Source: a virus (lineage: Duplodnaviria > Caudoviricetes). Taken from it: DNA of 64,000 bases. This document shows positions 1-64,000 of the stretch, piece after piece (within the stretch, counting starts at the first letter, position 1; each line of letters begins with the position of its first letter). The stretch is taken from IMG/VR virus record IMGVR_UViG_2912838376_000002, positions 160,001 to 224,000 of that record; one strand, written 5' to 3'. The translations under genes and the position numbers were made by a program. Under the pieces are notes generated by a model. That model saw only the letters and a program-made list of their open reading frames with translations. It did not search any database and had not been told where the DNA came from.

Positions 1-127
1 TAGTTTTTTTTGATTTTGATATTTTTTTTGGGATTTTTGTAATGAACTAGACTCTAACTTTTTATCCCGAAATCCACTAGAATCCACTAAAATAGGTCAA
101 AAAAAAGAGACCGCTGATGCGGTGAGC

Positions 128-388
128 TTATTCCCACCCAATCAAAACAGGTCCTTTGAAATCTACCACTCCACTTAATAACTCTAAGTGTGGTGTTGTA
201 CATTGCGGACAAACACTAAAAATACCTTCATAGTCCGTATGCGATTGTGGCATACCCGCTACATTGGTGAACTCATCGATTAAAGCAAGTTCGGAACCAC
301 ACATAATGCAGCTAGAAGTAGCTTTCGTTCCTTCACCTTTTAAATGTTTTTTATAGTCCATAGGTATCAACATCAGTTCGTAACTCAT
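128..388 (-). CDS. Small Zn-ribbon protein
   Basis: CIMC and CPQC pairs; followed on the minus strand by a hairpin and T-run at about 100-125. Confidence 0.6.
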   Translation of the reverse strand: MSYELMLIPMDYKKHLKGEGTKATSSCIMCGSELALIDEFTNVAGMPQSHTDYEGIFSVCPQCTTPHLELLSGVVDFKGPVLIGWE

Positions 389-794
389 TCAACTTATCCT
401 CCCAACGATAAAGACCTGATACAGAATCCTTATTTGTTACTGGCTTTAGTTCTGCATAGATAGTTATCAATTCTTCCCCTTCTAGACATACGAGAAAATT
501 TTTCTTTTCAACGTAGTAACCTCTAACGGAGATATATTCTTCTTTAAGTTTGGATGCAAATCCATTTTTATGACAATACAATGCAAAATAATGCTGTAAA
601 CGATTTTTAAACTTTGGTGCATTCTCCAAGAACACTTTGTATTGTTCGTAGTTGCTGAATGATCCTTTACGTATCTTTATTGCATGTAATGTCGGATAAC
701 TAACAAGGTTGTTGATTATATCCTCAACCATACTAGTCTTAGAAATGGTTTGAAAGATTTCAGTTGAGTCGAGTTTATTAGTAAGTTGTTGCAC
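351..794 (-). CDS. Hypothetical protein
   Basis: 147-aa ORF, GTG start preceded by a GGGGAG RBS. Confidence 0.65.
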   Translation of the reverse strand: MQQLTNKLDSTEIFQTISKTSMVEDIINNLVSYPTLHAIKIRKGSFSNYEQYKVFLENAPKFKNRLQHYFALYCHKNGFASKLKEEYISVRGYYVEKKNFLVCLEGEELITIYAELKPVTNKDSVSGLYRWEDKLNELRTDVDTYGL

Positions 795-815
795 AGGATC
801 AACTCCCCTTTATGT

Positions 816-1295
816 TCAACTGGCTTCTTCATACTCGACTTGTGCTTCTGGTTTAGCGTACATCTTTAGTTGCTCTTGTTTTCTTACGTGTCGAGGAAGG
901 AACATCTTCGCGCCGTTTAGACCATACGCAATCCTGTTCCAATCTGTCAAGATGGTTGTTTTGAGCAACTTTGGATTTTGAAGAATAACATTGTATGCTT
1001 CACGTAATGTTAAATCATCAAGCTCAATCCCTTGTTCTGTAAGGAAATCAATAGTGCTTCCACGTTGAGTTAATAAATCATCTAACCCATCGTCTGTTAA
1101 CGCTAACAAAGCTTTGAACTCAGTAAAAGTAAAACGATCGCGTACAATGTGTTTAATTGTTGCTATCAAATCATACTTTGCTAATTTTTCTGCAACCTTT
1201 TCTCCTTCTGCGCTGTTGATTGTGTAAATAGTGATATTAAGGTTTTCCAAAAATACTTCCTCCTGATGTTTGCTTAATGTAGGTAACATAAGCAC
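816..1295 (-). CDS. Spx/ArsC-family protein lacking the CXXC motif
   Basis: LALTDDGLDDLLTQRG, NPKLLKTTIL and FLPRHVR align with Bacillus Spx (MTEDGTDEIISTRS, HPGLLRRPII, FLPRKVR). No cysteines. Confidence 0.75.
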   Translation of the reverse strand: MLMLPTLSKHQEEVFLENLNITIYTINSAEGEKVAEKLAKYDLIATIKHIVRDRFTFTEFKALLALTDDGLDDLLTQRGSTIDFLTEQGIELDDLTLREAYNVILQNPKLLKTTILTDWNRIAYGLNGAKMFLPRHVRKQEQLKMYAKPEAQVEYEEAS

Positions 1296-10720: not shown

Positions 10721-11089
10721 TTATAAATTCAAGATAGCCGTTCGTCCATTCCTACCCATGTCTAGTTTTTCATCACATGGAGTACATAAGCTGTAAGTCA
10801 TGTTCCAAGGCATAAGCGATAAATCCTTACCACAACATTCACAAGATAGACATTGCTCAAATTTAGCCCACCGCTTTTCTTTCTTAATAGCTTCCTTGTT
10901 ACCAATAGGCACTAAACTATTTCTCGGAGCAGAACCTAGTATTGAAAATATGTCGTTCTGATCCCAAGGAATAGTTTTACTTAAGCGACTAGATAATATA
11001 GAAAGTGTCTTTTCTTGTAAGAACCAAGGCTTTCTTTGAGCAGGTTTATTAAAATCCTGATTAGCTGTTAAATCTATGTTTGCTTTCAA
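10721..11089 (-). CDS. Hypothetical protein with CxxC pairs
   Basis: CECC and CTPC; overlaps the upstream stop codon. Confidence 0.6.
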   Translation of the reverse strand: MKANIDLTANQDFNKPAQRKPWFLQEKTLSILSSRLSKTIPWDQNDIFSILGSAPRNSLVPIGNKEAIKKEKRWAKFEQCLSCECCGKDLSLMPWNMTYSLCTPCDEKLDMGRNGRTAILNL

Positions 11090-17045: not shown

Positions 17046-17356
17046 CTATATAGACTCATATATACATACCTATATAGACATAACACTATGACATAACGAC
17101 TATATAGAACTACACATCTACTACTATATAGAGACCTAATACTAATAGATAGATTGCTACTATATATAGATGCCATCGATTTGGTTCCATTCAATAACCT
17201 CCAAACCCTTGATACGACTGTGTTTGTACTTTTCTATATATGACAAACACTTAGACTATTACCCTATGATTATGTGTATCTACTATATAGGCATTCTCTT
17301 TATCTACTGCTATATAGACAGAGACACACACCACTATATAGACGTCTACTATATAG
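17046..17356. repeat. Array of the palindrome CTATATAG in a non-coding segment
   Basis: Exact copies at 17046, 17070, 17100, 17124, 17283, 17310, 17334 and 17349; variant CTATATATAG at 17160. Confidence 0.85.
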
Positions 17357-17481
17357 GGAGAATCACATACTTTATGTTTATGTACAGGTAGGAGAGGGGA
17401 TAGACCACCACTAAAACCTATGGCATTCAGAAGGCTTAGAAGGGGCGGAGACCCGCTTCACCCCCATCGAGAGGTGGTGTT

Positions 17482-17754
17482 TCAGCCTATTTTGAAAAAG
17501 CCCCCTGTAGGGAATTTATACGTAGTTTGTTTGTCTACTATATAGGTAACGAAGGCATTGACTGCGCCGACTGCTAGTTGCCATTCTTCGACCATCTTTT
17601 TTGCACGACGGTATGCGACGTCTTTCGGATTGTTGACCCAGTTGATGACACGTCGTTCTTTGCGAGTGACGGTACCGTCTATATCTATATAGATGACTTC
17701 ATACTTGGTGAAGGCCCAAGTGCGTTCGTAAATGTTGACGATAAATGTTGGCAT
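17482..17754 (-). CDS. Hypothetical protein
   Basis: 90-aa ORF with AAGGAGAGATT RBS. Confidence 0.7.
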   Translation of the reverse strand: MPTFIVNIYERTWAFTKYEVIYIDIDGTVTRKERRVINWVNNPKDVAYRRAKKMVEEWQLAVGAVNAFVTYIVDKQTTYKFPTGGFFKIG

Positions 17755-17782
17755 AATAGTAATCTCTCCTTAGTGAATAAAA

Positions 17783-18082
17783 TTAGATACATGCAGGGAT
17801 CAGTTTGTCTGCATAGAAAACGGGTGTCGGTAGTTCTTCCTTCGACAACCAAGCGAGTGAGTTTCCTGTTTCGATTAATTCTTCCGGTACGAATAGTTCT
17901 AGGTATGGACTGTTTAAGTTGACGACTGCATCCATTTCGATGTCACCTTCGATGACGAAAGCTAAGTATTTCTTTGTATAGTGATTTAGTCCGACTACAA
18001 CGACATCGTTCATGTTTGATGTCATTGCATAAGCTGCTGAGTGAGCAGGGGTAAACCCTGGATTAAGCGGTGGATTCTTCAT
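17783..18082 (-). CDS. Hypothetical protein
   Basis: 99-aa ORF with AGGAGG RBS. Confidence 0.7.
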   Translation of the reverse strand: MKNPPLNPGFTPAHSAAYAMTSNMNDVVVVGLNHYTKKYLAFVIEGDIEMDAVVNLNSPYLELFVPEELIETGNSLAWLSKEELPTPVFYADKLIPACI

Positions 18083-18135
18083 GTGTATTTCCTCCTATAT
18101 AGTAAGTATCAGAGTCTGGGGCTAACGCCCCAACG

Positions 18136-18348
18136 CTACTTATATAGCTCATGACTATATAGAGCGGGATCCATGTAACCAAGGCGTTCGAGTTTTTCAT
18201 AGGATGCCGCAGCTTCAGCATGTGAAGAGTAGCGATGAGATATGTGTTTGAATGTCATCCAAGTATCAGAGTGATAGAACTGTAGTCCTATATAGTAGGA
18301 GCTGTCATCTACTTTGATAATGGATAGTCTCGTTGAAAAGTGTTTCAC
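18136..18348 (-). CDS. Hypothetical protein
   Basis: 70-aa ORF with GAGGA RBS. Confidence 0.55.
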   Translation of the reverse strand: MKHFSTRLSIIKVDDSSYYIGLQFYHSDTWMTFKHISHRYSSHAEAAASYEKLERLGYMDPALYSHELYK

Positions 18349-28906: not shown

Positions 28907-29052
28907 ATGCTCTCATTTAATTGGTCAGGAGCTAGACCTATATTTGTGGGTCGGTAGTAGGGGGTGGGCATCGAAAGTCCACCAAGTACAACCCATATAT
29001 ACCACCTTGCGCCTCAAAAAATTTAAAAAAATCCAGCCTATATAGGGCAACA

Positions 29053-29298
29053 AGTCAGGAAGAAAGAAGGCGGTTATCCGTAGGGCACAGCCCAACAGCG
29101 GACGACTACCTTCTTTTTATTTGTGCCTACAGTCAGGAATGAGCGAGCCGGTGATGAAGCCAATAGTATTTGATTGAGAAAATGTGACAAATTGGTTAGG
29201 TTATGGCTGAAGTCAGGAAAGGAGGGTGAGGACATGGAAGGACTTATGTATGAACGATTTGAACAAGACCTACTTGATCATTGGGTGAAAAGTCAGGA
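29053..29298 (+). repeat. Phased AGTCAGGA repeats
   Basis: Copies at 29053, 29131, 29211 and 29291 (78/80/80 bp apart); further copy at 29911 and variants at 28923 and 29498. Confidence 0.75.
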
Positions 29299-50159: not shown

Positions 50160-50762
50160 ATGAGTACAACAGCTTCTCGCTATAGCAAAACATTCACTAC
50201 TTACGGTGGATCAGACATCGTATGTACATTTAATGGACAGGTAGTTGGTCAATTACAAGCTATTACTTACTCAGTTACTCGTGAAAAAGGTCCTGTGTAT
50301 GTAATGGGTGACCCAAACCCAAAATCTTTCTCTCGTGGTAAACGTGGTATCGCAGGAAGTTTAGTATTTACTATCTTCGACCGTGATGCACTGTTCAACC
50401 TTAAACAACAAGCTACTGTTCACCGTCATGGTTTAAACCAAACGGATGCACTTGCTAGTAGCACTACTCAAGTTTTAGATGTAGATGCAAACGCTGCAGC
50501 TTTAACTCAACGTAATGACCTTGTACAAGGATGGCAGACAAAACGTAAAGCCAACTTCATCGACGAAATCCCTCCATTTGATATCACTATCAACTTCCTT
50601 AACGAATATGGACAAGCTAGTAAAATGGAAATCTACGGTGTAGAGATTCTTAATGAAGGAATGGGCTTAAGTGTTGATGACAACACTACAGAAAAAGCTT
50701 GTACTTTCATCGCTCGTAACATCGTTGAGATGCGTCCACAAGATGATTGGGAAGTAGAATAA
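50160..50762 (+). CDS. Tail tube protein
   Basis: Follows the sheath gene; RGKRGIAGSLVF and PPFDITI motifs; strong codon bias. Confidence 0.75.
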   Translation: MSTTASRYSKTFTTYGGSDIVCTFNGQVVGQLQAITYSVTREKGPVYVMGDPNPKSFSRGKRGIAGSLVFTIFDRDALFNLKQQATVHRHGLNQTDALASSTTQVLDVDANAAALTQRNDLVQGWQTKRKANFIDEIPPFDITINFLNEYGQASKMEIYGVEILNEGMGLSVDDNTTEKACTFIARNIVEMRPQDDWEVE

Positions 50763-50771
50763 TAACAACTA

Positions 50772-50797
50772 AAGAGGTGCTTCGGCATCTCTTTTTT
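50772..50797 (+). terminator. Terminator after the tube gene
   Basis: AAGAGGTGC-TTCG-GCATCTCTT plus T-run. Confidence 0.75.
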
Positions 50798-51365
50798 GTA
50801 TTTGGTAGCAAAATTATTTTCGAGTGGTTATGTTCCGTTTATAGAAAATAGAAAGGCAGGTGTCTTCATGACAAGTAAATACCAGAAGACTTATACGAGC
50901 TTTGCAGGTACGGATATTGTTGCTGTTGTAACTCCCGAAGGCGGTAAGTCTGTAGTATTAGGTCAATTACAGACAATCTCTTATTCTGTATTTAGACCAA
51001 CAGCTCCAGTGTATGCCTTAGGACAGATTGCAGCTAAAGGTGTTGTGCGTGGGGCAAGAACGGTGGCAGGAAGTCTAATCTTCACTGTATTTGACCGTCA
51101 CGTTTTATATGAAATCATGAGAGAACATAATAACAATTCAGGTAATTGTCCTATTAATAAAAGTGATGAACTTCCACCATTCGATATAACGATTAACTTT
51201 ATGAATGAGTATGGACAGTCTTCAAGATTAGTAATCTATGGGGTATATCTTATCTCAGAAGGACAAACGATGTCGGTTGAAGACATGATTACGGAAAATA
51301 CAATGGAGTTCATTGCTTTAGATATAGACACAATGAAACCAGATGTTTTTGATGAAGGGTGGTAA
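50796..51365 (+). CDS. Tube paralog (tube initiator-like; probable start 50868)
   Basis: RGARTVAGSLIFTVFDR and DELPPFDITINFMNEYGQ nearly identical to the preceding tube protein. Confidence 0.7.
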   Translation: MYLVAKLFSSGYVPFIENRKAGVFMTSKYQKTYTSFAGTDIVAVVTPEGGKSVVLGQLQTISYSVFRPTAPVYALGQIAAKGVVRGARTVAGSLIFTVFDRHVLYEIMREHNNNSGNCPINKSDELPPFDITINFMNEYGQSSRLVIYGVYLISEGQTMSVEDMITENTMEFIALDIDTMKPDVFDEGW

Positions 51366-52087
51366 GAAGTATGAGTGATGGAGCTTACACACCGACAGGT
51401 CAATCTAAAAAGGGTTATGCAAATTATTACTCAGGAACAGATATTAGAATCTATTTCGGAGACAACTGGATAGATGAAATTGTAGAGATTGAATGGACAA
51501 TGCAAGAACAACTAGCACCAATCTACGGATTTGCTTCATATACATGGGATAAGGTAGCTAGGGGAAATCGTTTTGTTCAGGGTTCTTTTTCTATTAACTT
51601 CAAAGAAGCTGGTTATTTACAAACCGTACTTAATAGTTTAAGTTCTGAAATGACAGACGAACAAGAGTGGTTCAACCTAGCAGAATTTAACGGTGATGGT
51701 GGACAGAGTGCCCACAAAAACACGAAGGTTGAAGATCTGATAGATAATTTTCAGGCTTTAGCAGATGATTACGAAAATGCACTGTGGGGAACAAACTCTA
51801 ACTCTTCTAAGTTAATAGATAGTCGTAAAACTGATACATTCTTTTATAGCACAAATGAAAATGCAAAAAACAAGGCTTTAAAGGAACATGGTTTCAACAT
51901 TCTATTAACTTACGGGAATAATCCTTGTGCTGTTAGAGGAGCAGGAAGCTATAAGACCGCTCAAACAATCGTTGGGGTACAACTAACAGGTGTTTCACAA
52001 AGAGTTGATCCATCTGGAAACCCTATTTCTGAAGTATATACTTTCATTGCAAAAGATATCTCAGGAAATGTACAAAAAGCGTACTAG
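51359..52087 (+). CDS. Third tube-fold paralog
   Basis: YSGTDI, RGNRFVQGSFSINF and YTFIAK motifs shared with the tube proteins. Confidence 0.6.
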   Translation: MVRSMSDGAYTPTGQSKKGYANYYSGTDIRIYFGDNWIDEIVEIEWTMQEQLAPIYGFASYTWDKVARGNRFVQGSFSINFKEAGYLQTVLNSLSSEMTDEQEWFNLAEFNGDGGQSAHKNTKVEDLIDNFQALADDYENALWGTNSNSSKLIDSRKTDTFFYSTNENAKNKALKEHGFNILLTYGNNPCAVRGAGSYKTAQTIVGVQLTGVSQRVDPSGNPISEVYTFIAKDISGNVQKAY

Positions 52088-52142: not shown

Positions 52143-52610
52143 ATGAGAGAAAGAGGAGGAAACACAATGGCAAAACGTGTTGAAAAAGAAGAAGTTTTTA
52201 CAGAAGATACGCAAGAAGAAACTCCGGTTGTTAAAGTAGGAGACAAATTTGATGAAGATGATGTTTCAAAAGCGGAACAAGAAATCTTCCCAGGTGGTCC
52301 AACTTATAACGAACTAGAAAAATGGAAGTCTATGTATGCAGGAGAAGTATACTTGACTGAATTCGATGATGAAAACATTTTTGTATGGCGACCAATTAAG
52401 CGTAAAGAGTACAAAGATGTTGCTAAAATCCCAAATGCAGATAACTTCTATAAAGAGGAACGTATCTGTGAGAAAGCAGTTCTTTTCCCTGCTAACTACG
52501 GTTTCATGCAAATGACAAATGGTAAAGCTGGTATTCCGACACTATTACACGAATTAGTATTAGAGAAGTCAGGATTCGCAGCTAAAACAGGCGCAATGCG
52601 CTTAAGCTAA
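52143..52610 (+). CDS. Tail assembly chaperone (probable start 52167)
   Basis: FVWRPIKRKEY...ICEKAVL...AGIP...SGF; position after the tubes. Confidence 0.6.
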   Translation: MRERGGNTMAKRVEKEEVFTEDTQEETPVVKVGDKFDEDDVSKAEQEIFPGGPTYNELEKWKSMYAGEVYLTEFDDENIFVWRPIKRKEYKDVAKIPNADNFYKEERICEKAVLFPANYGFMQMTNGKAGIPTLLHELVLEKSGFAAKTGAMRLS

Positions 52611-52663: not shown

Positions 52664-53239
52664 ATGTTAATCGATCCTAATTTATTGAATGACAAGGTAG
52701 AAGAATTACCTATTGAATTTGAAACATATGAAGAAGTATACTTCAAAGAGCAATTGCGTGTTTGGCATGAGGAACACGGACATATCTTTATGCAAGAAAT
52801 AAGCGACGTACTATTTTTCTTCCGTGCATTAAGCAAAGAAGAACTAAAGATTGCACAGGAAGTATACAACGATGAATATGAACGAACGGAATACATTTGT
52901 AAAACTTGCGTTATCGAACCAATTATTGAAGATTACTCGTTAGATATTTTTGCAGGTGTACCAGAGGTTCTTTGTCGTTCTATTTTAGAAGAATCGGGAT
53001 ATACAAAGGCACAAAAAGTTAAGATCATGATAGCTAGATGGGAAAAACATATGGAGGATTCAGAAAACCAACTTCCATTAGTAATAAAAGAAGCATTTCA
53101 AGATATCCCATTAAGCGAAATAGAATCATGGCCAATGGCTAAAACAGCAGAGTATTATGTTAAAGCTAAATGGTTACTAGAAAATCTACGTGGATTACAA
53201 TTAGTGAATGAAGCAGATATGCAACAACAGCAACAGTAA
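52664..53239 (+). CDS. Second tail assembly chaperone paralog
   Basis: FFFRALSKEE...ICKTCVI...AGVP...SGY plus C-terminal extension. Confidence 0.6.
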   Translation: MLIDPNLLNDKVEELPIEFETYEEVYFKEQLRVWHEEHGHIFMQEISDVLFFFRALSKEELKIAQEVYNDEYERTEYICKTCVIEPIIEDYSLDIFAGVPEVLCRSILEESGYTKAQKVKIMIARWEKHMEDSENQLPLVIKEAFQDIPLSEIESWPMAKTAEYYVKAKWLLENLRGLQLVNEADMQQQQQ

Positions 53240-53253
53240 GGTGGTGAATAAGT

Positions 53254-56200
53254 ATGGCTGATAAACGCTATACGGGTGAAGAGAAAGAGAAGAGTCATCT
53301 GCTTAGTAATATAGCAAAAACAGGTTCCCTTATCGGTGGAGGAGTAATGGCTTACCGTAACCGAGCAATGATAGGTAAAGCTATGTCTGATTTATCTAGT
53401 AATGCAGCGGTCACTGGAAGTAGGGTATTAAGTAAGGATGGACATGCATACAGTGCTTTATCCGATGCTAAAGTATTTATGAAAGGAATATCAGACGCTC
53501 TTGGTGACAACCCATCTGTTATTAGAACATTACGTGGTGGGTTCGATAGTAATATACAGGAGAAAATGCATAAAAACTTCGAAGCTTCTGTCCGTAACAG
53601 TATCAAGAAGAGACAAATGCTTACGAATCGCCCAGGTCAAAATAATACAGAATTCGTTAGTCGTTACTATAAAGAATTCCACAAAAGAAACATGGGTGGT
53701 CTGAATAAGTTTGAATATGCTGCTACTCAATCATTCCGTCAAAATAAAATCCTTGAAAACCTACGAAAACAATCCTCTATTAAAAACAATGGTGGGGACA
53801 AGATTCTTAATGCTCTTACCCATTACCACAATCAAAATAAAGGTATTTTCAACAGTCCTGCTGATCACGTTGATGACTTCATAAAGCAACTTGAGGATGG
53901 GAAGTACGCTCATAAGGTTAAATTCCAAGATGATTCACAACGAAATGCATTTCAGAAACAAATGCTTCAGACTCTTGAACAGTATAAAGATACTAAAAAA
54001 GTATTTGAAGGGAATAAAGGCTCAATCCTATCTCAAGCGAAAGCGATGGAGACTGCTTCTGCTTATGGTTTCATTCAAGATGCACTCAAGCAAACTGATG
54101 TATTAAGTACTCAATTTAAGAAAAAAGGGTTTAATCATACTACGTTAAAAGATGCTGAGAAGTTTGACATAGCTACTAAACGTAAATATGGATTAATTGT
54201 TGATGATATTGATGAAAAAGGAAATGAAAAGTCTATTGATGTTACTAAGGAGTTAAGAAAATTCTTAGACAACAACAAGCATAATGACGATTTAAATGCA
54301 CTGTTAGGTAAAAAGGGAATATCTTTTAACTTTGAAGATATGATTCTTGATAAGAATTTATACACTCATGCAAAAACAGGTGAGATGATAGATAACCGAC
54401 ATTTAAAATCCGGTGCTGTTAGTGCAATAGATTCTTTCCAAGAAAGTGTTAAGGTTCCGTTCCTTAATATTAACCCGGTTGATTTAACACCTTGGCAAGC
54501 ATTCCGTTCTGGTCAAGCAAAAGAGGGGCTTCAAGTATTAGGTGCTGGACAGGTTCATGGTTTTGTAAGGAACTTAGGCGAGCAATCTTTTGATGGGGTA
54601 GCTAAAGCAACTCAAGAAGGAGCTATCCGAAACCCTCTAAAGAATAGTGATCATTTCTATACTGGTGGAAATGTTTTTCGTTATACAGAAACAGGTGGGC
54701 TAGATTTAGTTGATGAAGGCCTGTACTTAGCTCCATCACAATTTGGTGCATTCTCACGTATGCATAAAAACATGACTAACTACAGTGAGAAAGATGTAAT
54801 AGACGAACGCGGATGGGTTAAGAAACTATTCGATGTTGGATATCAGGAAAATGAAAGCCGAGCAGAAACATACAGAAAAGCATGGGATAAGCTTGCAGAT
54901 CCAATGTACGGACCAAATGCATTAAGAGGTTTAGTATATGATTTACATACCTCTAAAGAAAACCAGTCAGATATGATTCGTGATGTTTACAATGTAATGC
55001 GTGTTGGTATGGATAAGAGCGCAACAAGTCTTACTCGTGAAGCTACAGAAGTTCTTTCTCCTCACGTAAACAAGTTATTCGATCATATCAAAGTAAATGG
55101 AGAAGCCTTCGACTTTGCTAGATTAACTGATGACGACTATGTAAAAGATGCAGCTCTTGTATTTAATAAAGAACTTAAAAATCAATCATCTAACATAGGA
55201 ATGTACAAGTCTCATACTCGTTCTGTATACAATGAAGACTTGTCAGGTAGGGATGCTTTAAAACATTATGAGGATCCATCTGTTAAAGAATTAGGAAGAT
55301 GGACGCAGAAATACATCAATGACCCTGAAGGATTTAATTCCTCAAGGGAAGCAGCAGTCGATAAAAACCTACCATCTTTAATGGAATTTATGGTTCCTAC
55401 ATTTGGTGATGATGCAGCACTTATTCCTGCAACTGAAAAACTTCGACGTTCATTCCATCAATATGCTTTAAGGGCATTAGATAATGAAGCAGGAGACTTT
55501 GCTCCGGATGTCGTTAAAAATGGAGCAAGAAAAAGAAGTTCTCTTGCGTATTTAATCGATGCAAGAAACAAAGGTATTCTATCTGAATCAGATGTAAAGA
55601 ATGCGAAGGACTTAGAAACATTAACTGACATTTTAGGTTATGACAATATCCACAATATTGATGCAAGACCTCGTGAAGCGAAGACATTCCTTGAGGATGT
55701 AATGAACATCCATAAAGGCGATGTTGGTTATGACGATACTAAGCTAATGTTTGAAAGCGGCGGAGTTAGTCTAAATGGCTTTGGTCAAGACCTTCAAGAA
55801 GGTATTTTGCGTGCTCAACCTATTACAGGTAGGGCCCCAGAAGCAGGAAAACCTTCTCCTAACGGTGCAGACTTCATCATCATGCGTAAAAGTGGATTAG
55901 GTAAAGCTGGTAAGGAAATCGTATCAGAGTTAAACATAAACAACCTAAAAAATTATGGTCCAATTGATGATGGTTGGGATCTTGCGATTAATACAGAAAT
56001 GTATGCAAGAAACGCTTCCTCAACATTAGTTCAACAAGGTCTAGCAGTTTCAAAAGAGATGTTAGCAGGAAGACACATTAATGGAGATTCCTTAGAAAAT
56101 GTAACTACTTCAACTGCTATTATGTACGGATTAGCAGAGCGTCTAGATAACCAGTTAGGTAACTTCGGATTGAGTTTATCTCAGAAGAATCTAGGTTCTT

Positions 56201-59200
56201 TCCAAAGTATTATCGGCAATCAATACTTACGTCGTATTGTTCTTCCATACGCAGCATACCAACAAGCTGTTTACTTTGATGGATTAACAGGAGATACGGT
56301 TAGTGATACAGCTGCAGATGCATACGTTAATACTCATACAACTCTTCAAAGTATTAAAGAAGGACTTGGTATTAATAAGGCATTACGTCCTTGGGCAAAT
56401 GTATTTAAAAATGCAGGTGCTGACCAAGTAGGAGAATGGCTGGGAGTTAAGCAATTAGACTTCTTAACATTTGGCATGTTTAGTGATTTCCGTAGCGGTG
56501 AAGACACTAGAGAGTATTATGAATCTGGTGAAGATGCAATCCGTAAAAATAGATACTGGGGAATCGGTTCTCCTTCTCCTTGGGCTGGTGGAGGAATCGA
56601 CCACTTTGAAGCCAACTGGTATCGTAAATTAAAGTCTGATTACAAATTTACAGACACTATGTATGGTAGTGAAAGTGAATATTGGGCGAATAACTGGATG
56701 CCTACCTTAACTCATCCGTTTGCTCCTATTAAACACTTCTTAACAGACCCTTATCATTATGAAAATAAACATGAATTAGACAGACCATATGCAATCACTG
56801 GTGGTTTTAGTGAACTACAAAACATTCCTATCGTAGGTAATCTTATTGATGGTACAGTTGGACGAATCCTAAAACCTCGTAAAGAACACAAGGGGTTAGA
56901 AAAAGCGCATGAAGAATACATTTCTTCTATTAACCAATACATCCAAGATAAATACAGTCCAGTTAAGGATGGTTCTTATGTAGGTATTTCTGGAACAGGT
57001 GCAGTCACGCAGTACAATATGTATGCCGATCAAGGGACAGGCGATTACTTTGGAGGTTCAGCAGCTAACTATGGTGCTGATGCTGGTATTGTTAACTACG
57101 GTAATGGAATTACACCTGCTTACAAAACAAACGTTGCTGGTGGTGGAATAGGAGGCCCTGTAGGTGATATAGGAGGCTCAGGTGGAACCGCAGTAGGTGG
57201 AAGTCTTATTGGTAGGGGCATGAGTGGTGCTACAAGAGCTCAAAACATTCTAGCTGAACAAAACTATGCACTTGCTCAAATGGGTGATGGTGTAGAAGCT
57301 GGAACAGTTAACAGCTTAATGAAACTTAGAAACATGGGGATCCCTCAGGATCTTGACAGTATTGGTCAACTTGATAATTTAACAGGTTTGCTTAAAGACG
57401 GATTCTACAGTGCATCCGAGTTAGGTGGTATCTATGGTTTCTTAACAAAAACAGGAATTGGATATGAAGAGTCATGGCGTGGAACAACACTTGCTCCATC
57501 AACATTAATGACTTCTCCAAGTCGTGCTTTTTGGGATATGAACCTTGGTGGTGCCGGTGGTGCACTATCGGAGATTGGTCGTCGTTATGTTCCTCGTGAC
57601 CCTAACAAAGATTATTATTCTCCAATTCGAAATACAATGCCTGAATGGTTGCCAGGTATAGACTCATCAACAGATTTCTTACATGGTGATCCATATACGA
57701 AAATACAGAAGGGTGAAATAAGGCTTCCTGGTAAAGCATATGAAACTCTTTACAAACTTCATCCGGACGGAACTGGTTCTGGTGAATTTGCAAACTATGG
57801 TGTGTTTGACCGATTCCGTATCTTAGCAGATATCGATCCTGATAGTGAACAGTACAAAGTAGCTAAGCATCAAATCTCATTACTACGTCAATCTGGTGGT
57901 CTTACAGAAGATATGGCCAAAGAAGTTGAGGAGATTAAGCAACAGGTTCACGATAAACAGGACACATATCACTGGTACGATAAGAAGTTTTCAAATGCTG
58001 ATATCCAAGAGAAGAATGTAACAATCTCTAAAGTTATCGATGCAAATACGTTCATGGTTCGAGAGTTCGATGCTCCAATTAAATTAGCTGGTATCAAATT
58101 AACACAAAAAGATAACCAAGATGTAATTGATTGGATGGGACAGTATTTAAAAGTTGGTGCGAGAGTTAAGATTGGTATTGCCGATGATCCTGTTGCACGA
58201 ATGAATAATGATACATATGGCTCAATGGATGCTGTTGTGTACACGAACCAAAATGAAGAAGGTCGTTTCTGGTTTGAGACGAACAAAGGCCAGTCATTAA
58301 ATGCTCTTATCGCAAACAGAACTTGGAAGAATCCAGTTCAGATTAAAGATGATGGCAGCCCAACTTCTACAAGAGCTCTTTATTCAAATGACATGGTAAC
58401 TGTCGGTAAGTATACTGAAATGTTAACGCATGATATTCTCCCTAAAATACCTTTCGTCGGAATCTTAGCTGATAAGTTCTTACAGGTACGTACACCGATT
58501 GAAAGTTATAAGAGAGATCAAGTATATGGTTCAGACTGGAGACCTTGGACACAGCCATATGAAGGCTGGATTAAACCAATGGTAAATACGGTTGCTTCTC
58601 AAAACCCACTTATTGCAGGTGCAGAAATGGCAGCCATTGGTCACCTTTGGGGAAAGACAACAAAAGCTAAAGGTTTAGGACGTGTCGCTGGATTTGCTAT
58701 CGGTGCCGGACTTTCTACTCTTCGTGTACTAGATGAAGGAGCAGGAAGAATTCTTCCGGGCTTAGACAACGTTTGGATTCCACAAGAACGTGAAGACGAA
58801 CGAGAAATCAATCAGTACTTTGACCGTTTAAAATACGTTAAGTATCGTGGTCTTTACGAGAAAGCTAGCCAACTTGCTAAAAGTGAAGAGGGCGTAGATG
58901 TAGAAGAATTCTTTGATGCTGCAGCAGAAAAAGGGCGAAAAAACAAAGGCTTAAAACGTTACCTAACAGACAAGAAGAAAACATTGTCGTGGGCTAAAAA
59001 AATGGGTTATGGTGACACCGAAGCCGTTAAATCACAAATCCATGAACTCTCTGGCGAAATAGAAGATATTTCGTCTGCAAAAGAAGCCTATCAAGCAGGT
59101 AAGTACACATCTTTAGCTATTAAGTATCGACAAGAATATGAAGGTACTCTGTATAGTATGGGTGAAACTGGAGCCTCTGATAGAACATCGTTAATGAGAG

Positions 59201-59736
59201 CCTTAACACCAAAAGAGCGAGAATACATTCCACGATTCCTTGAGACGACTAGCAGTAAAGAGCGTCAAGAGATTCTAAAGTATGTTCCTGAGGACATTAA
59301 GAGAATCTTACAAGGTAGCTGGGGACTTAAAGTAGATAAGCAAGAAGACATTGAAGATTACTTTGATAGTCATTATCTGCCGAGTGAAAATTGGTCCGGA
59401 TGGAACGCAAGTACAAATCTTGATGATATAAAAATCAAGGTTATGAAAAAGCAAGGTGTAAATCCAACTACTTCTGGTTATTGGAGTAAAGACCAAGCTA
59501 GAGCGGAGAAGTCAGGAGAAAAAGCAATACCAATACACTCTTTAAGTAGTTTGATCGATACAGGTCGCTTGCGTGAGGTGTTATCAGGAATGGGATTATC
59601 AGATGTAGATGTCCAATTAACAACTTCTTATGGAGAGGGACCAGGTGGAATCAATACTTCCATCGACATCATGAAAGATATGCGAAATGAAATTTTAGAT
59701 GGTCTTAATGCAGGAGTACATTCCTCATTATTCTAG
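53254..59736 (+). CDS. Giant virion protein (tape-measure position) with degenerate thermonuclease-like OB domain
   Basis: 2160 aa after the chaperones; G-rich segments; VIDANTF...IKLAGI...DTYGS...SLN at about 58020-58310. Confidence 0.6.
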   Translation: MADKRYTGEEKEKSHLLSNIAKTGSLIGGGVMAYRNRAMIGKAMSDLSSNAAVTGSRVLSKDGHAYSALSDAKVFMKGISDALGDNPSVIRTLRGGFDSNIQEKMHKNFEASVRNSIKKRQMLTNRPGQNNTEFVSRYYKEFHKRNMGGLNKFEYAATQSFRQNKILENLRKQSSIKNNGGDKILNALTHYHNQNKGIFNSPADHVDDFIKQLEDGKYAHKVKFQDDSQRNAFQKQMLQTLEQYKDTKKVFEGNKGSILSQAKAMETASAYGFIQDALKQTDVLSTQFKKKGFNHTTLKDAEKFDIATKRKYGLIVDDIDEKGNEKSIDVTKELRKFLDNNKHNDDLNALLGKKGISFNFEDMILDKNLYTHAKTGEMIDNRHLKSGAVSAIDSFQESVKVPFLNINPVDLTPWQAFRSGQAKEGLQVLGAGQVHGFVRNLGEQSFDGVAKATQEGAIRNPLKNSDHFYTGGNVFRYTETGGLDLVDEGLYLAPSQFGAFSRMHKNMTNYSEKDVIDERGWVKKLFDVGYQENESRAETYRKAWDKLADPMYGPNALRGLVYDLHTSKENQSDMIRDVYNVMRVGMDKSATSLTREATEVLSPHVNKLFDHIKVNGEAFDFARLTDDDYVKDAALVFNKELKNQSSNIGMYKSHTRSVYNEDLSGRDALKHYEDPSVKELGRWTQKYINDPEGFNSSREAAVDKNLPSLMEFMVPTFGDDAALIPATEKLRRSFHQYALRALDNEAGDFAPDVVKNGARKRSSLAYLIDARNKGILSESDVKNAKDLETLTDILGYDNIHNIDARPREAKTFLEDVMNIHKGDVGYDDTKLMFESGGVSLNGFGQDLQEGILRAQPITGRAPEAGKPSPNGADFIIMRKSGLGKAGKEIVSELNINNLKNYGPIDDGWDLAINTEMYARNASSTLVQQGLAVSKEMLAGRHINGDSLENVTTSTAIMYGLAERLDNQLGNFGLSLSQKNLGSFQSIIGNQYLRRIVLPYAAYQQAVYFDGLTGDTVSDTAADAYVNTHTTLQSIKEGLGINKALRPWANVFKNAGADQVGEWLGVKQLDFLTFGMFSDFRSGEDTREYYESGEDAIRKNRYWGIGSPSPWAGGGIDHFEANWYRKLKSDYKFTDTMYGSESEYWANNWMPTLTHPFAPIKHFLTDPYHYENKHELDRPYAITGGFSELQNIPIVGNLIDGTVGRILKPRKEHKGLEKAHEEYISSINQYIQDKYSPVKDGSYVGISGTGAVTQYNMYADQGTGDYFGGSAANYGADAGIVNYGNGITPAYKTNVAGGGIGGPVGDIGGSGGTAVGGSLIGRGMSGATRAQNILAEQNYALAQMGDGVEAGTVNSLMKLRNMGIPQDLDSIGQLDNLTGLLKDGFYSASELGGIYGFLTKTGIGYEESWRGTTLAPSTLMTSPSRAFWDMNLGGAGGALSEIGRRYVPRDPNKDYYSPIRNTMPEWLPGIDSSTDFLHGDPYTKIQKGEIRLPGKAYETLYKLHPDGTGSGEFANYGVFDRFRILADIDPDSEQYKVAKHQISLLRQSGGLTEDMAKEVEEIKQQVHDKQDTYHWYDKKFSNADIQEKNVTISKVIDANTFMVREFDAPIKLAGIKLTQKDNQDVIDWMGQYLKVGARVKIGIADDPVARMNNDTYGSMDAVVYTNQNEEGRFWFETNKGQSLNALIANRTWKNPVQIKDDGSPTSTRALYSNDMVTVGKYTEMLTHDILPKIPFVGILADKFLQVRTPIESYKRDQVYGSDWRPWTQPYEGWIKPMVNTVASQNPLIAGAEMAAIGHLWGKTTKAKGLGRVAGFAIGAGLSTLRVLDEGAGRILPGLDNVWIPQEREDEREINQYFDRLKYVKYRGLYEKASQLAKSEEGVDVEEFFDAAAEKGRKNKGLKRYLTDKKKTLSWAKKMGYGDTEAVKSQIHELSGEIEDISSAKEAYQAGKYTSLAIKYRQEYEGTLYSMGETGASDRTSLMRALTPKEREYIPRFLETTSSKERQEILKYVPEDIKRILQGSWGLKVDKQEDIEDYFDSHYLPSENWSGWNASTNLDDIKIKVMKKQGVNPTTSGYWSKDQARAEKSGEKAIPIHSLSSLIDTGRLREVLSGMGLSDVDVQLTTSYGEGPGGINTSIDIMKDMRNEILDGLNAGVHSSLF

Positions 59737-59796
59737 AATACATTAAGCGGCGTTCAGTCTTTTTAGACGGGCGCCGTTATTTATTAGGAGGGTATT

Positions 59797-62700
59797 ATGG
59801 AAGGAATCGAAAGAGTACCTATAAAAAACAGGGCATTAACACCTGCTTATGAATCTGCTGATGGTTCAAGCAAGATCAAACTGGAGAACGCAGCAGAACG
59901 TACAGCTGCTGAATATAGACAAAGCGCAATAGCTCAAACATATAACGAATTAACAAAAGACAATCGTATTAGTTCATTAGGCATTTGGGAGTCAGCTCGT
60001 ACTCCAAATAGTTTTAATGTTAATGCTCAACAAGCATTGAATCCTTTTATGAATTTAAAAGGTAACGACAACGTATTGTTCTTTGATATAGAAGCAATCG
60101 GTACACCTGAACACATGAGAAGTAATAAAGGTCTAGATCTATTTGCTATGACTGAGTTATCTTTTGGTGGAACTAAGTTTAACGGGAAAGACTTTGTTAA
60201 AAATAAAGGTTCTATCGTATCGATGGCAGTTGCTCCAGGAAAAGATGAATATGCTCGATTAAAGCAACAAATCAATAGATTAAAACAAAATCCGATGATG
60301 GCAGTTTCACAGGATATGCACCGTACATTATTAGACTTAGCTAAGTACTCTGATGCAAATAAATTCAAGAGTGCTACAAGTAACGGTAAAGCTTATATGT
60401 CATTATTAGGGCATTCTCGTGTCCCTTCTGCAGGTACAGCTTTTACAAGAAATACAATAGACGAAATCGAGAGAGGTCTTAACAACCTTTACCACAAAGG
60501 AACAAAGGTTGAAGATGCACTATCTATTTTCCAGAATCATATCAAATCTACGAATTCAAAGTTAGGTGGATACAACATTCATCACTATGACTTACCAGCT
60601 ATTATTGGTGCTGCAGGAAATAAAAGTACAAAAGAATTCTTTAGAAGTGTGGCAAAGGATTCATTAGATTTTTATCACGGATATTCTGCTACTGCTAAAG
60701 ATCCTTATTCATTAACAGGTTCAAGTTTACGCCAAGAACATATCCACCAATCTTTATTAAGCAAGAAAAAGATTAAAGCTAATCAATCTTCTTATTTATA
60801 TCACTTAGCAAAAGACGATATCCAAGCGAATATTGAAATTGCAGGATTCACCCACAATAAAATCAAATCATTCATTCAAGAAGCGAAGAAATCTCCAGCT
60901 TACGCCCTTAACCCTTCTACATTAAAAACAGAAATCCTAAAAGCAGGACAAGACGTATTCTCTTATCAAAGTGGTTATTTTGACAAAGAGAAGCACAAGT
61001 ACAATCTTGTAGGAACGGTTGATGGAGATGGAAAGATGAGTCCTCGATGGGCAAACTTAAATACATCTCTTCCTTCAAATGAAAATTTTACAATTAAAGA
61101 ATTCTTACAAGACGTAGCACTACCAGGAACAAAGAAGAAAGGATTCGGTGCAAGACTTGATTCTAAAGATATAAAGGGTAAAAGCATCTTATTAATGTCT
61201 GAAACTCAAGAAGGACTAGCACAACAAATTCATGGTTCTTTCATGCCAATGGATGATGCAATTTCTAAAAGCCTGCGTGACTTAAAAGTAAAACATGACG
61301 CTTCCTTCCGTGAATATGAAAGAATGTTCGATAATAACGGATGGAAGAAGATGAATGAATACTACAACTATCTAGATAAAGCAGGTAGTGTAGGAGAAGG
61401 TTTTGACTGGAAATCACACGTTGTTAAAAATGGAGGAACAGAAGAACTAGCTATGAAGTTCCCTCATATGGTCGCACGACTAGAAGGGGAAAGAGATGTA
61501 TGGGGAACAGCTATGAGTACTCTAAAAGCTTCAGGATTAAGCGACGAACAGAAATCAATTGCTCTTCGACACATTAAAAACAAGTTAGATGAACAAGGTG
61601 ATAACAAAGCTCATGTAACTGCTAAAGGAAATAGATTTTTCGATTTTGCTTTCGGAGAAGAAGATAAAACAATTTTCAATGCAAAAGATACGAACTCAAT
61701 CAAAGGTTCTTTCCGTTCTTACATTAATGGAAGAAGAAGAGGAGATCGTATTGGAAATCCTGAGAAGTCATATAAGATGGCTCGTATTGATGAATTACAG
61801 GATATTATCATTAACAACTTCAAACTTTCACCAGAAGGTAAAGCTTCTAACGATGTGAAATATCTTATCGGTCAGATGAAGCAGGAAGTTATGTCGGGTA
61901 ATAAAATCGAAACAGCTCTTACTGAAATGTCTAATCTTGTTCGTGACAAGGTAGAAAATATGGGTACAGATAATTTCGTTCGTGAAGTAACTAATCAAAT
62001 GACGGACAACCGAACAACTGCAATCAAAGGACTAATGAAGAACCTACCAGATGTTATGCATGAAAGCATTGAGAACGCTCGTTCATACAAAAATGCTAAA
62101 GACATATTAAATGGTAATAGCCCACTAAAAGGATTTTTAAGAGAGCAGGATAGTCGCATCAAGAGATTATTTGAGAAGAACTTCGGCACACATGGAATGA
62201 ACGATGCAGACACAATTAGTAAAGCAAGTGGTATGGCTGCTAAGTATGAGGATCTTGTTGGTAAGATTTTATCGTCTTACAGCAACGACTTTAATACTCA
62301 AATTCGATTCATGGATGGCGGAAACCCATTGCTTATCTTAGCTGATAAAAAGAGCGGTATGGACTTAAGTGAAGTAAAGACATATGAAGAACTAGTTCGT
62401 AACCCTAGATTAGCGACTATTGAACTTCCATCCTTCGATAAAGACATGAAGGTGAAATACGGTGGAAACCGAAAAGCTTCTGTTATTCGCTCTGGTATTG
62501 GTGCAAAAGGAGCTTATCATAGTACATCAGTTACAGATGCTCTAAATATGATTCTTGATTATTCTAAGAAAGCAAAAGAGTTAGCTGAAATTGCTGAGGG
62601 TACTGGAAATAAGAATGCATTTGTTCAAATCAGACAAGGACTTCGTTATCGCGTTGGAAGACAAGTAGACCCTGTTCCTACTGATGCAAGTCGAAAGCTA

Positions 62701-64000
62701 CATTTCGATGATAAAGAAATGTTTGATATTAAATCAGCTATTAGTGGTGAGGTTCGTTCAAGTAAATGGGATATCACAGGCTATGCAGAAGCTTGGTATA
62801 AAGCAAATCAAAAAAGATTAGGTTTGAACACCTCTGCTGATGTTATTGCTCAAAATGCAAAAGAAAAAGGAATCACATTCTTTGAAGCAATGGGACAAAG
62901 AGCAAAAGGTTACGCTACTGCCGGAGGACTTCTTGATTTCGCAAATGGTACTTCTGGATTAAAAGGAAGTATGTTTGGTATCAATAACCGTTCTGCTTCA
63001 AAAGGTTTTGTTGGTACTGCAAATACAGATGCTCGTACTTATATGGCATTAGGTAATTATTATGCTGATTCAGTAGAGAACCCACATAAGACAATCAACT
63101 ACCGAAAAGTAGACCAAGAAGTTGCGTCAAGAGTATTACGTGGATCTGGTAAAGACCAATCGTTCCGTACAAAAAACAGCTTTATTTCATCTGCTGCATT
63201 TAAAGCACTTGATGATGCAAATGAAGTCCGCGGTATCACAATGCAAACAGGTTATATGACGGATGAAGAAATTGCATTAAAGCTAAAAGATGCTAACAAA
63301 ATCAGTGAATACAAAAATATGATTGATAAAGCACAAGCTAAAAATCAAATCTCTCCTGTTGAAGCAAGACAGATGAAGAAGTCTTTAGATATGGGTATGC
63401 TTTCTACAAGTGAAGGTTTAGCATTCATGGACCACAGACTAATGAAAGCTTTTGATGGAATGGATGAAGTTCGTATTAATATGAACGCTGAGAAAGTAAT
63501 GTTTAACAACTCCATTGAAACAGCCATTGAAAAAGAAGCAGAGAAACAAGGGCTTGGTAATGGTTTGTGGAAAGATAAAGGAATCACTTTTGACAAACCA
63601 CTAGAAGTTGATATTAATTCAATGTTTAATGAGAAAAATCATCTTACTCTTGGAAAATATGAAATTAACAATATCAAAAACGAGATTGTTGATGAAAAAC
63701 GTTTTAAGAAAGGTGATAAGGTATCTATCCTTGGATTCAACGCAGATGACATTGATAAGAGATCACTTGTATTAGGTAGACAACGTAAAACAGGACATGG
63801 TTTTAAAGCCGTAACTGAAGGTGGTTTCCGTGCTACTATGACTCCTATGCTTGGAGAAATTATGAGTGATTTATATGGCGTAGAAGGAGTAGAACAAGTA
63901 ATTTCTCATCTAGGAGAAAAGAAAGGTGCTATTGACCTACCTGCATTAATTCGTGGTTACGATACTCAGATTCGTCAACAATTCGGCGGTACAGTTGAAA
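59797..64000 (+). CDS. Giant protein (>1400 aa, truncated): N-terminal DEDDh exonuclease and RNAP beta-like barrel motifs
   Basis: ATG 59797 with AGGAGG RBS; the segments I translated are in one frame up to the window end. Motifs FFDIE, GYNIHHYD, HLAKDD, then EGLAFMDHRLMK and RKTGHGFKAVTEGGFRATM...VISHLG. Confidence 0.7.
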   Translation, partial: MEGIERVPIKNRALTPAYESADGSSKIKLENAAERTAAEYRQSAIAQTYNELTKDNRISSLGIWESARTPNSFNVNAQQALNPFMNLKGNDNVLFFDIEAIGTPEHMRSNKGLDLFAMTELSFGGTKFNGKDFVKNKGSIVSMAVAPGKDEYARLKQQINRLKQNPMMAVSQDMHRTLLDLAKYSDANKFKSATSNGKAYMSLLGHSRVPSAGTAFTRNTIDEIERGLNNLYHKGTKVEDALSIFQNHIKSTNSKLGGYNIHHYDLPAIIGAAGNKSTKEFFRSVAKDSLDFYHGYSATAKDPYSLTGSSLRQEHIHQSLLSKKKIKANQSSYLYHLAKDDIQANIEIAGFTHNKIKSFIQEAKKSPAYALNPSTLKTEILKAGQDVFSYQSGYFDKEKHKYNLVGTVDGDGKMSPRWANLNTSLPSNENFTIKEFLQDVALPGTKKKGFGARLDSKDIKGKSILLMSETQEGLAQQIHGSFMPMDDAISKSLRDLKVKHDASFREYERMFDNNGWKKMNEYYNYLDKAGSVGEGFDWKSHVVKNGGTEELAMKFPHMVARLEGERDVWGTAMSTLKASGLSDEQKSIALRHIKNKLDEQGDNKAHVTAKGNRFFDFAFGEEDKTIFNAKDTNSIKGSFRSYINGRRRGDRIGNPEKSYKMARIDELQDIIINNFKLSPEGKASNDVKYLIGQMKQEVMSGNKIETALTEMSNLVRDKVENMGTDNFVREVTNQMTDNRTTAIKGLMKNLPDVMHESIENARSYKNAKDILNGNSPLKGFLREQDSRIKRLFEKNFGTHGMNDADTISKASGMAAKYEDLVGKILSSYSNDFNTQIRFMDGGNPLLILADKKSGMDLSEVKTYEELVRNPRLATIELPSFDKDMKVKYGGNRKASVIRSGIGAKGAYHSTSVTDALNMILDYSKKAKELAEIAEGTGNKNAFVQIRQGLRYRVGRQVDPVPTDASRKLHFDDKEMFDIKSAISGEVRSSKWDITGYAEAWYKANQKRLGLNTSADVIAQNAKEKGITFFEAMGQRAKGYATAGGLLDFANGTSGLKGSMFGINNRSASKGFVGTANTDARTYMALGNYYADSVENPHKTINYRKVDQEVASRVLRGSGKDQSFRTKNSFISSAAFKALDDANEVRGITMQTGYMTDEEIALKLKDANKISEYKNMIDKAQAKNQISPVEARQMKKSLDMGMLSTSEGLAFMDHRLMKAFDGMDEVRINMNAEKVMFNNSIETAIEKEAEKQGLGNGLWKDKGITFDKPLEVDINSMFNEKNHLTLGKYEINNIKNEIVDEKRFKKGDKVSILGFNADDIDKRSLVLGRQRKTGHGFKAVTEGGFRATMTPMLGEIMSDLYGVEGVEQVISHLGEKKGAIDLPALIRGYDTQIRQQFGGTVE

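Follow-up and report, generated by a model that had tools for sequence, protein, structure and literature searches.

Jumbo phages of the phiKZ and AR9 type carry a virion RNA polymerase (RNAP) in the head and follow a two-polymerase strategy, the second enzyme being a non-virion RNAP (nvRNAP), with each polymerase split in 4-5 polypeptides. Single-chain enzymes are known as well, such as gp66 from phi14:2, a crAss-like phage (PDB 6VR4), a virion-module protein that holds both catalytic barrels. The closest known system to the one described here is gp96 of the Thermus phage P23-45 (PDB 8H2N/8H2M), which the account of Chaban et al. 2024 presents as a virion RNAP fused to the tape measure that transcribes the pre-early genes including that of the nvRNAP; according to the same account some relatives of P23-45 have such a polymerase fused to the tape-measure protein and others do not (PMC10770324). 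Here we describe P0003, a giant protein whose gene begins at position 59797 of a 64,000-nucleotide stretch (the window) of the Caudoviricetes record IMGVR_UViG_2912838376_000002. P0003 is predicted to join an N-terminal DEDDh exonuclease to a single-chain two-barrel RNAP core, and we hold these two domain identities with high confidence. We also think it rather likely that P0003 is a virion protein of the tail lumen, occupying with both of its enzymes the 'tape-measure slot' of a ~245-kb contractile-tailed Bacillaceae jumbo phage or phage-plasmid. By analogy with P23-45 it probably enters the host cell along with the DNA and would start viral transcription there.

P0003 and gp96 are both giant tail-module proteins with a single-chain two-barrel RNAP, a DFDGD motif and a hydrophobic segment, and both phages have a separate gene for a non-virion two-barrel RNAP. 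Relatives without the polymerase module are also common to both; gp146 of phage 0305phi8-36, in which none is detectable, stands in the slot of P0003. The two proteins nevertheless show no sequence similarity (structural Z 6.7), and the phage of P0003 is contractile-tailed, as its sheath gene indicates, whereas P23-45 has a siphovirus tail. The polymerase lies in the C-terminal half of P0003 but at the N-terminus of gp96; P0003 adds the N-terminal exonuclease, and no metallopeptidase was detected in it with Pfam. While gp96 is described as clamp-less (PMC10770324), the model of P0003 aligns to the N-terminal portion of subunit β′. With phi14:2 gp66 it shares a length of ~2,200-2,400 residues, a place in the virion module and both barrels in one chain, but gp66 belongs to another phage group and virion type, has no sequence similarity to P0003, contains no exonuclease domain and is not in the tape-measure slot. 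The β′-like chains of the phiKZ- and AR9-like nvRNAPs are the best Foldseek matches to our model, although those enzymes are divided among several polypeptides and here one chain is encoded in the tail module. P0003 would work like the virion RNAPs of P23-45 and the crAss-like phages, with membership in neither family established. New here are the setting of the tail-slot polymerase, a jumbo phage of Bacillaceae with a contractile tail, the different order of its domains and the DEDDh exonuclease fused to it; the kind is already known from P23-45.

The initial annotation had noticed this open reading frame (ORF) as one missing from its list, apparently because it has no stop in the window, and this proved correct. 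The frame is open at its 3′ end (59797..63999, + strand; 1,401 codons), and in the whole record, which has 244,829 bp, is rated 100% complete and contributes its bases 160001-224000 as the window, it continues through 2,423 codons with zero internal stops to genome position 227,068.

Residues ~1151-2210 of P0003 are predicted to form a complete single-chain two-barrel RNAP core. Two stretches near the window end had been aligned by eye with RpoB, STSEGLAFMDHRLMK (residues 1203-1217, from nt 63403) and RQRKTGHGFKAVTEGGFRAT (from residue 1328, nt 63778). Both are present, and in a 27-row alignment of the family position 1206 is acidic (E or D) in 24/24 covering rows and is followed by G1207, while K1337 and R1345 are each kept in 25/25. 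These two, with seven residues between them, make up the β-type set together with the acidic residue, and the second basic residue is Arg and not Lys. By eye K1337 and R1345 pair with the two lysines of RpoB GDK...NKG, which we take to be K1065 and K1073 of E. coli β, and the spacing presumably resembles the K-x7-K of that subunit. The R-x-P...DxDGD barrel anticipated downstream was found in the same ORF, ~1.4 kb beyond the window end, as R1841-Y-P1843 ... D1879-F-D-G-D1883 (L001 6431-6445); R1841, P1843, D1879, D1881, G1882 and D1883 are invariant (13/13), and in the 27-row alignment these residues are nearly invariant and kept in every row covering them. The positions conserved in the alignments of 13 and 27 sequences read [S/T]-T-x-[E/D]1206-G1207, K1337-x7-R1345, R1841-x-P1843 and D1879-x-D1881-G-D1883. 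To these are added A2014, R2015, G2022, D2025 and R2028, all invariant and borne on a long helix (residues 2003-2046), and S2075, Q2076, I2079, S2080 and K2082 within a conserved SQxxISxKK at 2075-2083. The structural alignment with β′ passes through residues 2003-2083, which were examined for a bridge helix and trigger loop at the level of the region. All eight residues listed as universal for two-barrel RNAPs by Ruprich-Robert and Thuriaux (PMC2919709) are represented, namely R1841, P1843, D1879, D1881, D1883, [E/D]1206, K1337 and R1345, the last with Arg for Lys. A match to [RK]xP..DxDxD is found in the adjacent giants as well and on its own is no evidence; it is conservation and fold that count.

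An AlphaFold2 model of residues 1151-2320, built from the 27-row alignment, reached a predicted local distance difference test score (pLDDT) of 79.4 and a predicted TM-score (pTM) of 0.77. In a Foldseek search of the PDB the best 50 rows were all RNA polymerase entries, headed by the AR9 nvRNAP β′-like chain (E 3.5e-5) and including phiKZ gp55, bacterial β′, plastid PEP, Pol I/II/III and QDE-1. Re-alignment of the top chains with VIA-align placed model positions 400-1060 along nearly the whole largest subunit (E. coli β′ 22-1355), at Z 11-12.2 with 320-527 residues aligned (E. coli β′ Z ~11.5). When the model was searched with VIA-align against 48,161 PDB representatives, two-barrel RNAPs filled the top 16 rows and generic double-psi barrels such as the CDC48 N-domain followed from row 17 onward. 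The matches included QDE-1 (Z 11.2, root-mean-square deviation (rmsd) 3.8 Å, 312 residues, model 1..1061, both barrels), M. tuberculosis β′ (Z 11.1), RDR2 (Z 10.4), P74-26 gp62 (Z 8.7), P23-45 gp96 (234 residues) and phi14:2 gp66 (Z 6.5, 435 residues, model 1..1063). QDE-1, RDR2, gp62, gp96 and gp66 each align over model positions ~1 to ~1000. The β subunits match at Z 5.0-6.3 (plastid PEP β 6.3; Xanthomonas β 5.0) over model 1..331/336, and the double-psi barrel proposed for 63200-64000 is thereby borne out, as the first ~335 residues of the model, which include window positions 63247-64000, align to the β-subunit barrel region. Over both barrels the YonO/QDE-1/RDR2 clade (PF05183) is the best structural match. 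P0003, however, has no PF05183 match and no profile similarity to P0004, the second polymerase of this genome, which lies near that family, and because the Z value of QDE-1 ties with those of the β′ chains P0003 is not assignable to the clade.

Residues 85-378 of P0003 are a DEDDh 3′-5′ exonuclease whose activity is predicted. The three motifs FFDIE, GYNIHHYD and HLAKDD all lie where the initial annotation had read them. They supply the D-x-E of Exo I (D97, E99), the acidic D265 of Exo II and, in Exo III, the H-x4-D of the 'h' subtype. D97, E99, D265, H336 and D341 are invariant in 22/22 aligned family members at identities down to ~21%, and N260 of Exo II is kept in at least 90% of this alignment. 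The fold agrees: an AlphaFold2 model of residues 1-480 reached pLDDT 88.2 and pTM 0.83, and for the N-terminal model (85-378), searched against the same 48,161 PDB representatives, the best 50 VIA-align rows were all DEDD-type exonuclease folds except for one uncharacterised protein (Z 14.3-8.7). They include the exonuclease domains of a B-family polymerase (Z 14.3) and of DinG (Z 14.0), Pol III epsilon (Z 13.5, rmsd 2.9 Å, 170 of 174 residues aligned), 3′hExo (Z 13.2), Cap18 (Z 13.1) and E. coli exonuclease I (Z 12.9, 190 residues). The alignment with the latter reaches model residue 472 and extends into the β-rich domain at 375-470. The Z values are tied within ~1, and the substrate of the nuclease therefore cannot be read from them. 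Foldseek ranked the nucleotide-binding domains of Hsp70 first for the same model, at TM-score 0.15-0.19, which we judged a distant RNase-H-like resemblance, and assigned a probability of 1.0 to exonuclease I, TREX1 and RNase T; this ambiguity was settled by the VIA search.

The domain has the fold and all five catalytic residues of the DEDDh exonucleases (Pol III epsilon, exonuclease I, TREX1, RNase T, 3′hExo, coronavirus nsp14 ExoN), but in contrast to these it is without sequence-level relatives beyond the giant-protein family: a search for shorter stand-alone relatives gave 5 matches, all of them short fragments 66-88% identical to P0003. In the literature searched no described case was found of a DEDDh exonuclease fused to a two-barrel RNAP. 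The domain might resect the 3′ end of entering DNA, shorten RNA from its 3′ end or attack nucleic acids of the host.

The position of the gene points to the tail. P0003 lies between homologues of 0305phi8-36 gp145 and gp147 (blastp) and is one gene removed from the chaperones, as in the gene order given for 0305phi8-36 (PMC2147016). Since the flanking genes match gp143, gp144, gp145 and gp147 (Table 1), P0003 fills the slot of gp146. The latter (2,537 residues; L006 6623-14236) is annotated as 'hypothetical tape measure protein; identified as virion protein by mass spectrometry', the name tape measure being given chiefly on tail length in the account of PMC2147016. It has a length similar to that of P0003, resembles it weakly over the C-terminal ~60 residues and contains weak collinear Exo I/II/III-like motifs at residues 1199-1229, 1416-1491 and 1681-1702 (E 8e-4 in a search of 3 sequences, 6.2 bits); a DxDGD motif is absent, the profile of the polymerase core does not match it, and its remainder is unalignable to P0003.

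The composition of the protein points the same way. P0003 and the neighbouring giant 1 have 0 cysteines in 4,583 residues, and the 22 full-length members of the P0003 family have 0 in 53,849. The cysteine share is 0.35% in the late module and 0.83% in the minus-strand (early) arm. From this absence we infer selection on a protein that acts outside the cytoplasm and passes the tail unfolded or extended. The sole hydrophobic segment of P0003 (residues 2297-2322) is followed by a strongly conserved tail. It is improbable that P0003 is instead a cytoplasmic late enzyme that is not packaged, for example a late-gene polymerase with a processing nuclease encoded in the tail operon by chance. Large, globular enzyme domains and a sequence link to the virion protein gp146 that is weak would suit such an enzyme, but in 4/4 phages examined the gene lies between the chaperones plus gp145 homologue on one side and the hub homologue on the other. 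The relatives are moreover free of cysteine, whereas the cytoplasmic YonO-like enzymes have 2-9 per protein, and conservation extends to the hydrophobic segment and the tail at the C-terminus, of which the latter is weakly shared even with gp146.

We consider it very improbable that the two-barrel core synthesises DNA, as a PolD-like enzyme or a primase-polymerase, with the DEDDh domain as its proofreader and the protein brought in so that the ends of the entering genome are repaired or copied. The top structural matches are all RNAPs and the alignment covers the whole β′ chain, beyond the barrels; among the structure matches listed there is no PolD chain, which by itself decides nothing. These observations stand against the facts that DEDDh enzymes are the usual proofreaders of DNA polymerases, that many VIA rows are polymerase exonuclease domains, epsilon included, and that archaeal PolD is described as a DNA polymerase of the two-barrel type whose exonuclease is a subunit of its own (PMC4996933). 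Least probable of all is a purely structural role, as tape measure or ejection protein, with enzyme-like modules that have lost their activity and persist only as scaffold. Although gp146 sits in the same slot without a detectable polymerase and the slot evolves very fast, relatives of 20-25% identity retain all five exonuclease residues and all eight signature positions of the polymerase, a pattern that marks selection on catalysis.

A packaged enzyme that starts transcription would be one of two polymerases, as the initial annotation had proposed for this phage, and the candidate for the second is P0004 at 24719-28906 on the minus strand, next to a divergent region at ~28.9-29.9 kb. P0004 contains 'SVRFP' and 'ADHDGD' (R759-x-P761, D808-H-D-G-D812), with R759, P761, D808, D810, G811 and D812 invariant in 14/14 sequences. 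Its PF05183 (RdRP) match, the sole one in the genome, stays under the 23.8-bit cut-off (18.3 bits, E 4.4e-5), as does the match in the B. subtilis control genome, which we assume to be YonO, and PF05183 is carried by 2/26 relatives of P0004. These relatives share contigs with those of P0003 in Gottfriedia (234,240 bp), Priestia (246,926 bp) and Cytobacillus (240,207 bp, labelled plasmid), and copies at 99-100% identity are named B. cereus and B. tropicus. No relationship between the P0003 family profile and P0004 was found with hhalign, P0004 as a tblastn query matched none of 50,697 phage records, and with P0004 nothing was found in the KLEB27-3, WH1 and 0305phi8-36 records. A search with PF05183 itself finds orf99 of 0305phi8-36 and has no match in KLEB27-3 or WH1; orf99 is the known counterpart of P0004 in the accounts of PMC2147016 and PMC7824862.

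The family of P0003 is small. Among the same phage records tblastn matched three, all Bacillus jumbo myophages: KLEB27-3 (24.8% identity, 2e-108), where the homologue is annotated as 'structural protein', WH1 ('virion structural protein') and Edson ('hypothetical protein'). The labels in KLEB27-3 and WH1 fit a location in the virion. A collection of 5.8 billion proteins yielded 14 matches on 220-247-kb contigs from Gottfriedia, Priestia, Cytobacillus, B. mycoides and B. subtilis assemblies, and an exhaustive HMMER pass over 1.84 billion cluster representatives only 32 matches; full-length members have 2,366-2,509 residues. Contigs of a relative occur in the RNA-seq libraries X15 and X16 (one sample) and X20, with ~7% of bases differing over the ORF (291/4,199 in X15/X16), while X21 had no P0003-like contigs; as DNA can occur in such libraries these contigs are no proof of transcription. 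A description of the family as a polymerase was not found in the literature searched. Supplementary Data 4 of PMC10770324 lists only BpSp, AR9 and AgentSmith as Bacillus phages, and the alignments of its Supplementary Data 3, which stand outside this comparison, might include the family.

The core model also has structural look-alikes in BFVD. These are A0A7R7G2L5, an entry without a name (E 1e-32), A0A8S5SD80, labelled 'minor tail protein' and belonging to an uncultured siphovirus (E 9e-16), two uncharacterised proteins of Acinetobacter phage ME3 (A0A172Q021 and A0A172Q0S6, one at E 1.3e-9 and the other at 2e-3) and an uncharacterised protein of Microcystis phage MaMV-DC (A0A075BUT7, E 1.1e-6). 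Judging from these models more tail- or virion-linked polymerases may be hidden there.

Several points weigh against our reading of P0003 as a tail-borne polymerase. A structural Z of ~11 on a 1,170-residue model is moderate and the rmsd is high (3.8-6.8 Å). No significant sequence-level match to any RNAP family was obtained with Pfam or the PDB profile search: phmmer with full P0003 gave 0 matches in the PDB, a 13-sequence profile gave phiKZ gp55 at E 0.63 (with R-x-P..DxDGD aligned) and a Pol delta exonuclease region at E 2, neither significant and both taken as leads only, and PF05183 had no match in P0003 at E up to 1. The sole match with Pfam and PHROGs was DUF2483, which at E 0.06-0.26 is not significant. 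The middle 670 residues are unexplained; residues 480-1150 have no Pfam or PHROG match, and ESM Atlas yielded nothing usable. The link to the virion runs through gp146, the counterpart in the slot, by a weak C-terminal match only (BLAST E 0.048, hhalign E 0.024), and in gp146 itself a polymerase core is not detectable. The 'structural protein' labels of the WH1 and KLEB27-3 homologues come without a stated basis. Finally, ~1,500 residues of globular enzyme would make an odd length ruler and 'tape measure' is therefore perhaps the wrong name for P0003; either P0003 or giant 1 might set the tail length.

Table 1. Features of P0003 and of the genes around it. Positions are those of the window unless marked L001, in which numbering L001 8068 is genome position 227,068; aa, amino-acid residues.
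Feature	Position	Strand	Basis or remark
P0003, first 1,401 of 2,423 codons	59797..64000	+	continues to genome 227,068 = L001 8068
Strong ribosome-binding site AGGAGG	59786..59791	+	5 nt 5′ of ATG 59797; direct sequence reading
DnaQ-like DEDDh 3′-5′ exonuclease domain (predicted), aa 85-378	60049..60930	+	AlphaFold2 fold and invariant residues
Exo I, FFDIE, aa 95-99	60079-60093; D97/E99 at 60085-60093	+	
Exo II, GYNIHHYD, aa 258-265	60568-60591; N260..D265 at 60574-60591	+	
Exo III, HLAKDD, aa 336-341	60802-60819; H336..D341	+	
β-rich domain past the exonuclease core, aa ~375-470	60919..61206	+	strands 375-468 in AlphaFold2 model
Middle region without assigned fold, aa 480-1150	61234..63246	+	no Pfam/PHROG match
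Start of predicted RNAP core, β-like double-psi barrel, aa 1151-~1485	63247..64000 (window stops at aa 1401)	+	model and conservation
β-barrel residues E1206; K1337; R1345	63412-63414; 63805-63807; 63829-63831	+	conservation
β′-like barrel, R1841-x-P1843 and DFDGD 1879-1883	L001 6317-6445	+	outside window
Long helix aa 2003-2046; hydrophobic segment aa ~2297-2322; conserved C-terminal tail	past window		outside window, with the rest of the core
P0004, YonO/RdRP-like single-chain two-barrel RNAP, 1,395 aa	24719..28906	-	first gene of minus-strand arm
Terminase	33152	+	late block, PHROGs on 50 ORFs
Portal	37480	+	late block, PHROGs on 50 ORFs
Major head protein	42485	+	late block, PHROGs on 50 ORFs
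Sheath	48373	+	late block, PHROGs on 50 ORFs
Three tube-like genes	50160-52084	+	late block; then two chaperone-like genes, giant 1, P0003, giant 3
Tail-chaperone-like gene	52143-52610	+	blastp 0305phi8-36 chaperonin gp143, 3.9e-28
Tail-chaperone-like gene	52664-53239	+	blastp 0305phi8-36 chaperonin gp144, 2.2e-20
Giant 1 (P0002, 2,160 aa)	53254..59736	+	blastp gp145 4.9e-96; WH1 gp096 E 0
Giant 3, hub-like	L001 8126-15469	+	phrog_20474 1.5e-187; blastp 0305phi8-36 hub gp147 2.5e-44

Other features of the genome were noted alongside these. Giant 1 corresponds in KLEB27-3 to two proteins, gp031 (1,340 residues) and gp033 (677 residues), whose genes are separated by a small one (L002 4734-11887). 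Genes for a DnaD-like replication protein and a ParA-like partition protein lie at window positions 1933-4140 (PHROGs); these, the setting of P0004 and the plasmid-labelled contig of a relative suggest that the element resembles a phage-plasmid. Four to five tandem 24-nt repeats (CCTGGGGA.GGAGAAATTCC...) occur at 2477-2598 within the replication-protein ORF. The palindrome CTATATAG has 16 copies in the 245-kb genome, 12 of them in the mostly non-coding region 17046-18288, often 24-30 nt apart, and one (29038) ~130 nt upstream of P0004. CTATATAGA is found 10 times in the window against 0.94 expected, and for the CTATATAG/CTATATAGA copies one may think of an array of iterons, of an origin or of a set of promoters. 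AAGTCAGGA occurs in 5 copies against 0.73 expected, on the + strand only (sites 29052-29298, 52566 and 59509), and the variants CAGTCAGGA and AAGTCAGAA stand directly 5′ of ribosome-binding sites at 29132, 29497 and 29913; AAGTCAGGA and its variants may be a late promoter or an RNA-processing signal. Nine + strand copies of AAAAAAGG.AGGGGCGTTAGCC are spread over 1364-22064, and read on the minus strand they have the look of terminators, with a hairpin and a run of T, placed between early genes. A transposase-like gene (phrog_10081, 3e-104) adjoins a tRNA nucleotidyltransferase gene (6.6e-87) at 11086-13343 (minus strand).

From a mechanistic point of view the packaging of P0003, its ejection, both of its enzyme activities and its target genes are inferred, and the steps are drawn by analogy with gp96 as presented in PMC10770324. 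P0003 would be assembled inside the tail, with its conserved C-terminal tail anchoring it by the baseplate hub, and on infection would exit the tail before the DNA. The single hydrophobic segment, or the C-terminal part, could keep it at the membrane entry pore while the cysteine-free enzyme domains would refold in the cytoplasm. The polymerase would then transcribe the first-entering DNA, giving a host-independent pre-early transcription, and the pre-early genes would probably include that of P0004, which would take over. Beside the polymerase, the exonuclease might trim the 3′ DNA end of the entering genome to provide a single-stranded template, or might trim RNA 3′ ends. A tentative and rather doubtful extension is that both enzymes act on the same nucleic acid, which would make P0003 the first two-barrel RNAP with a built-in 3′-5′ nuclease, serving either RNA proofreading and backtrack rescue or the 3′-end resection that yields a template. 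In the RNA version the nuclease would replace Gre/TFIIS-type factors, much as nsp14 ExoN serves the coronavirus polymerase.

If our hypothesis were correct, injected tail-fused polymerases would not be peculiar to Thermus siphoviruses and would have arisen or persisted in contractile-tailed Bacillaceae jumbo phages. It would also explain how transcription starts in 0305phi8-36-like phages before the YonO-like enzyme exists. P0003 would offer a new compact, cysteine-free two-barrel polymerase for the study of the minimal transcription machine and of passage through the tail tube, and the fused exonuclease would be a new partner for the two-barrel class, through which one could test directly whether a virion enzyme edits RNA 3′ ends or prepares a template. 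Finally, the P0003 family has no Pfam or PHROG model, and the labels 'structural protein' and 'tape measure' in jumbo-phage records can mask enzymes.

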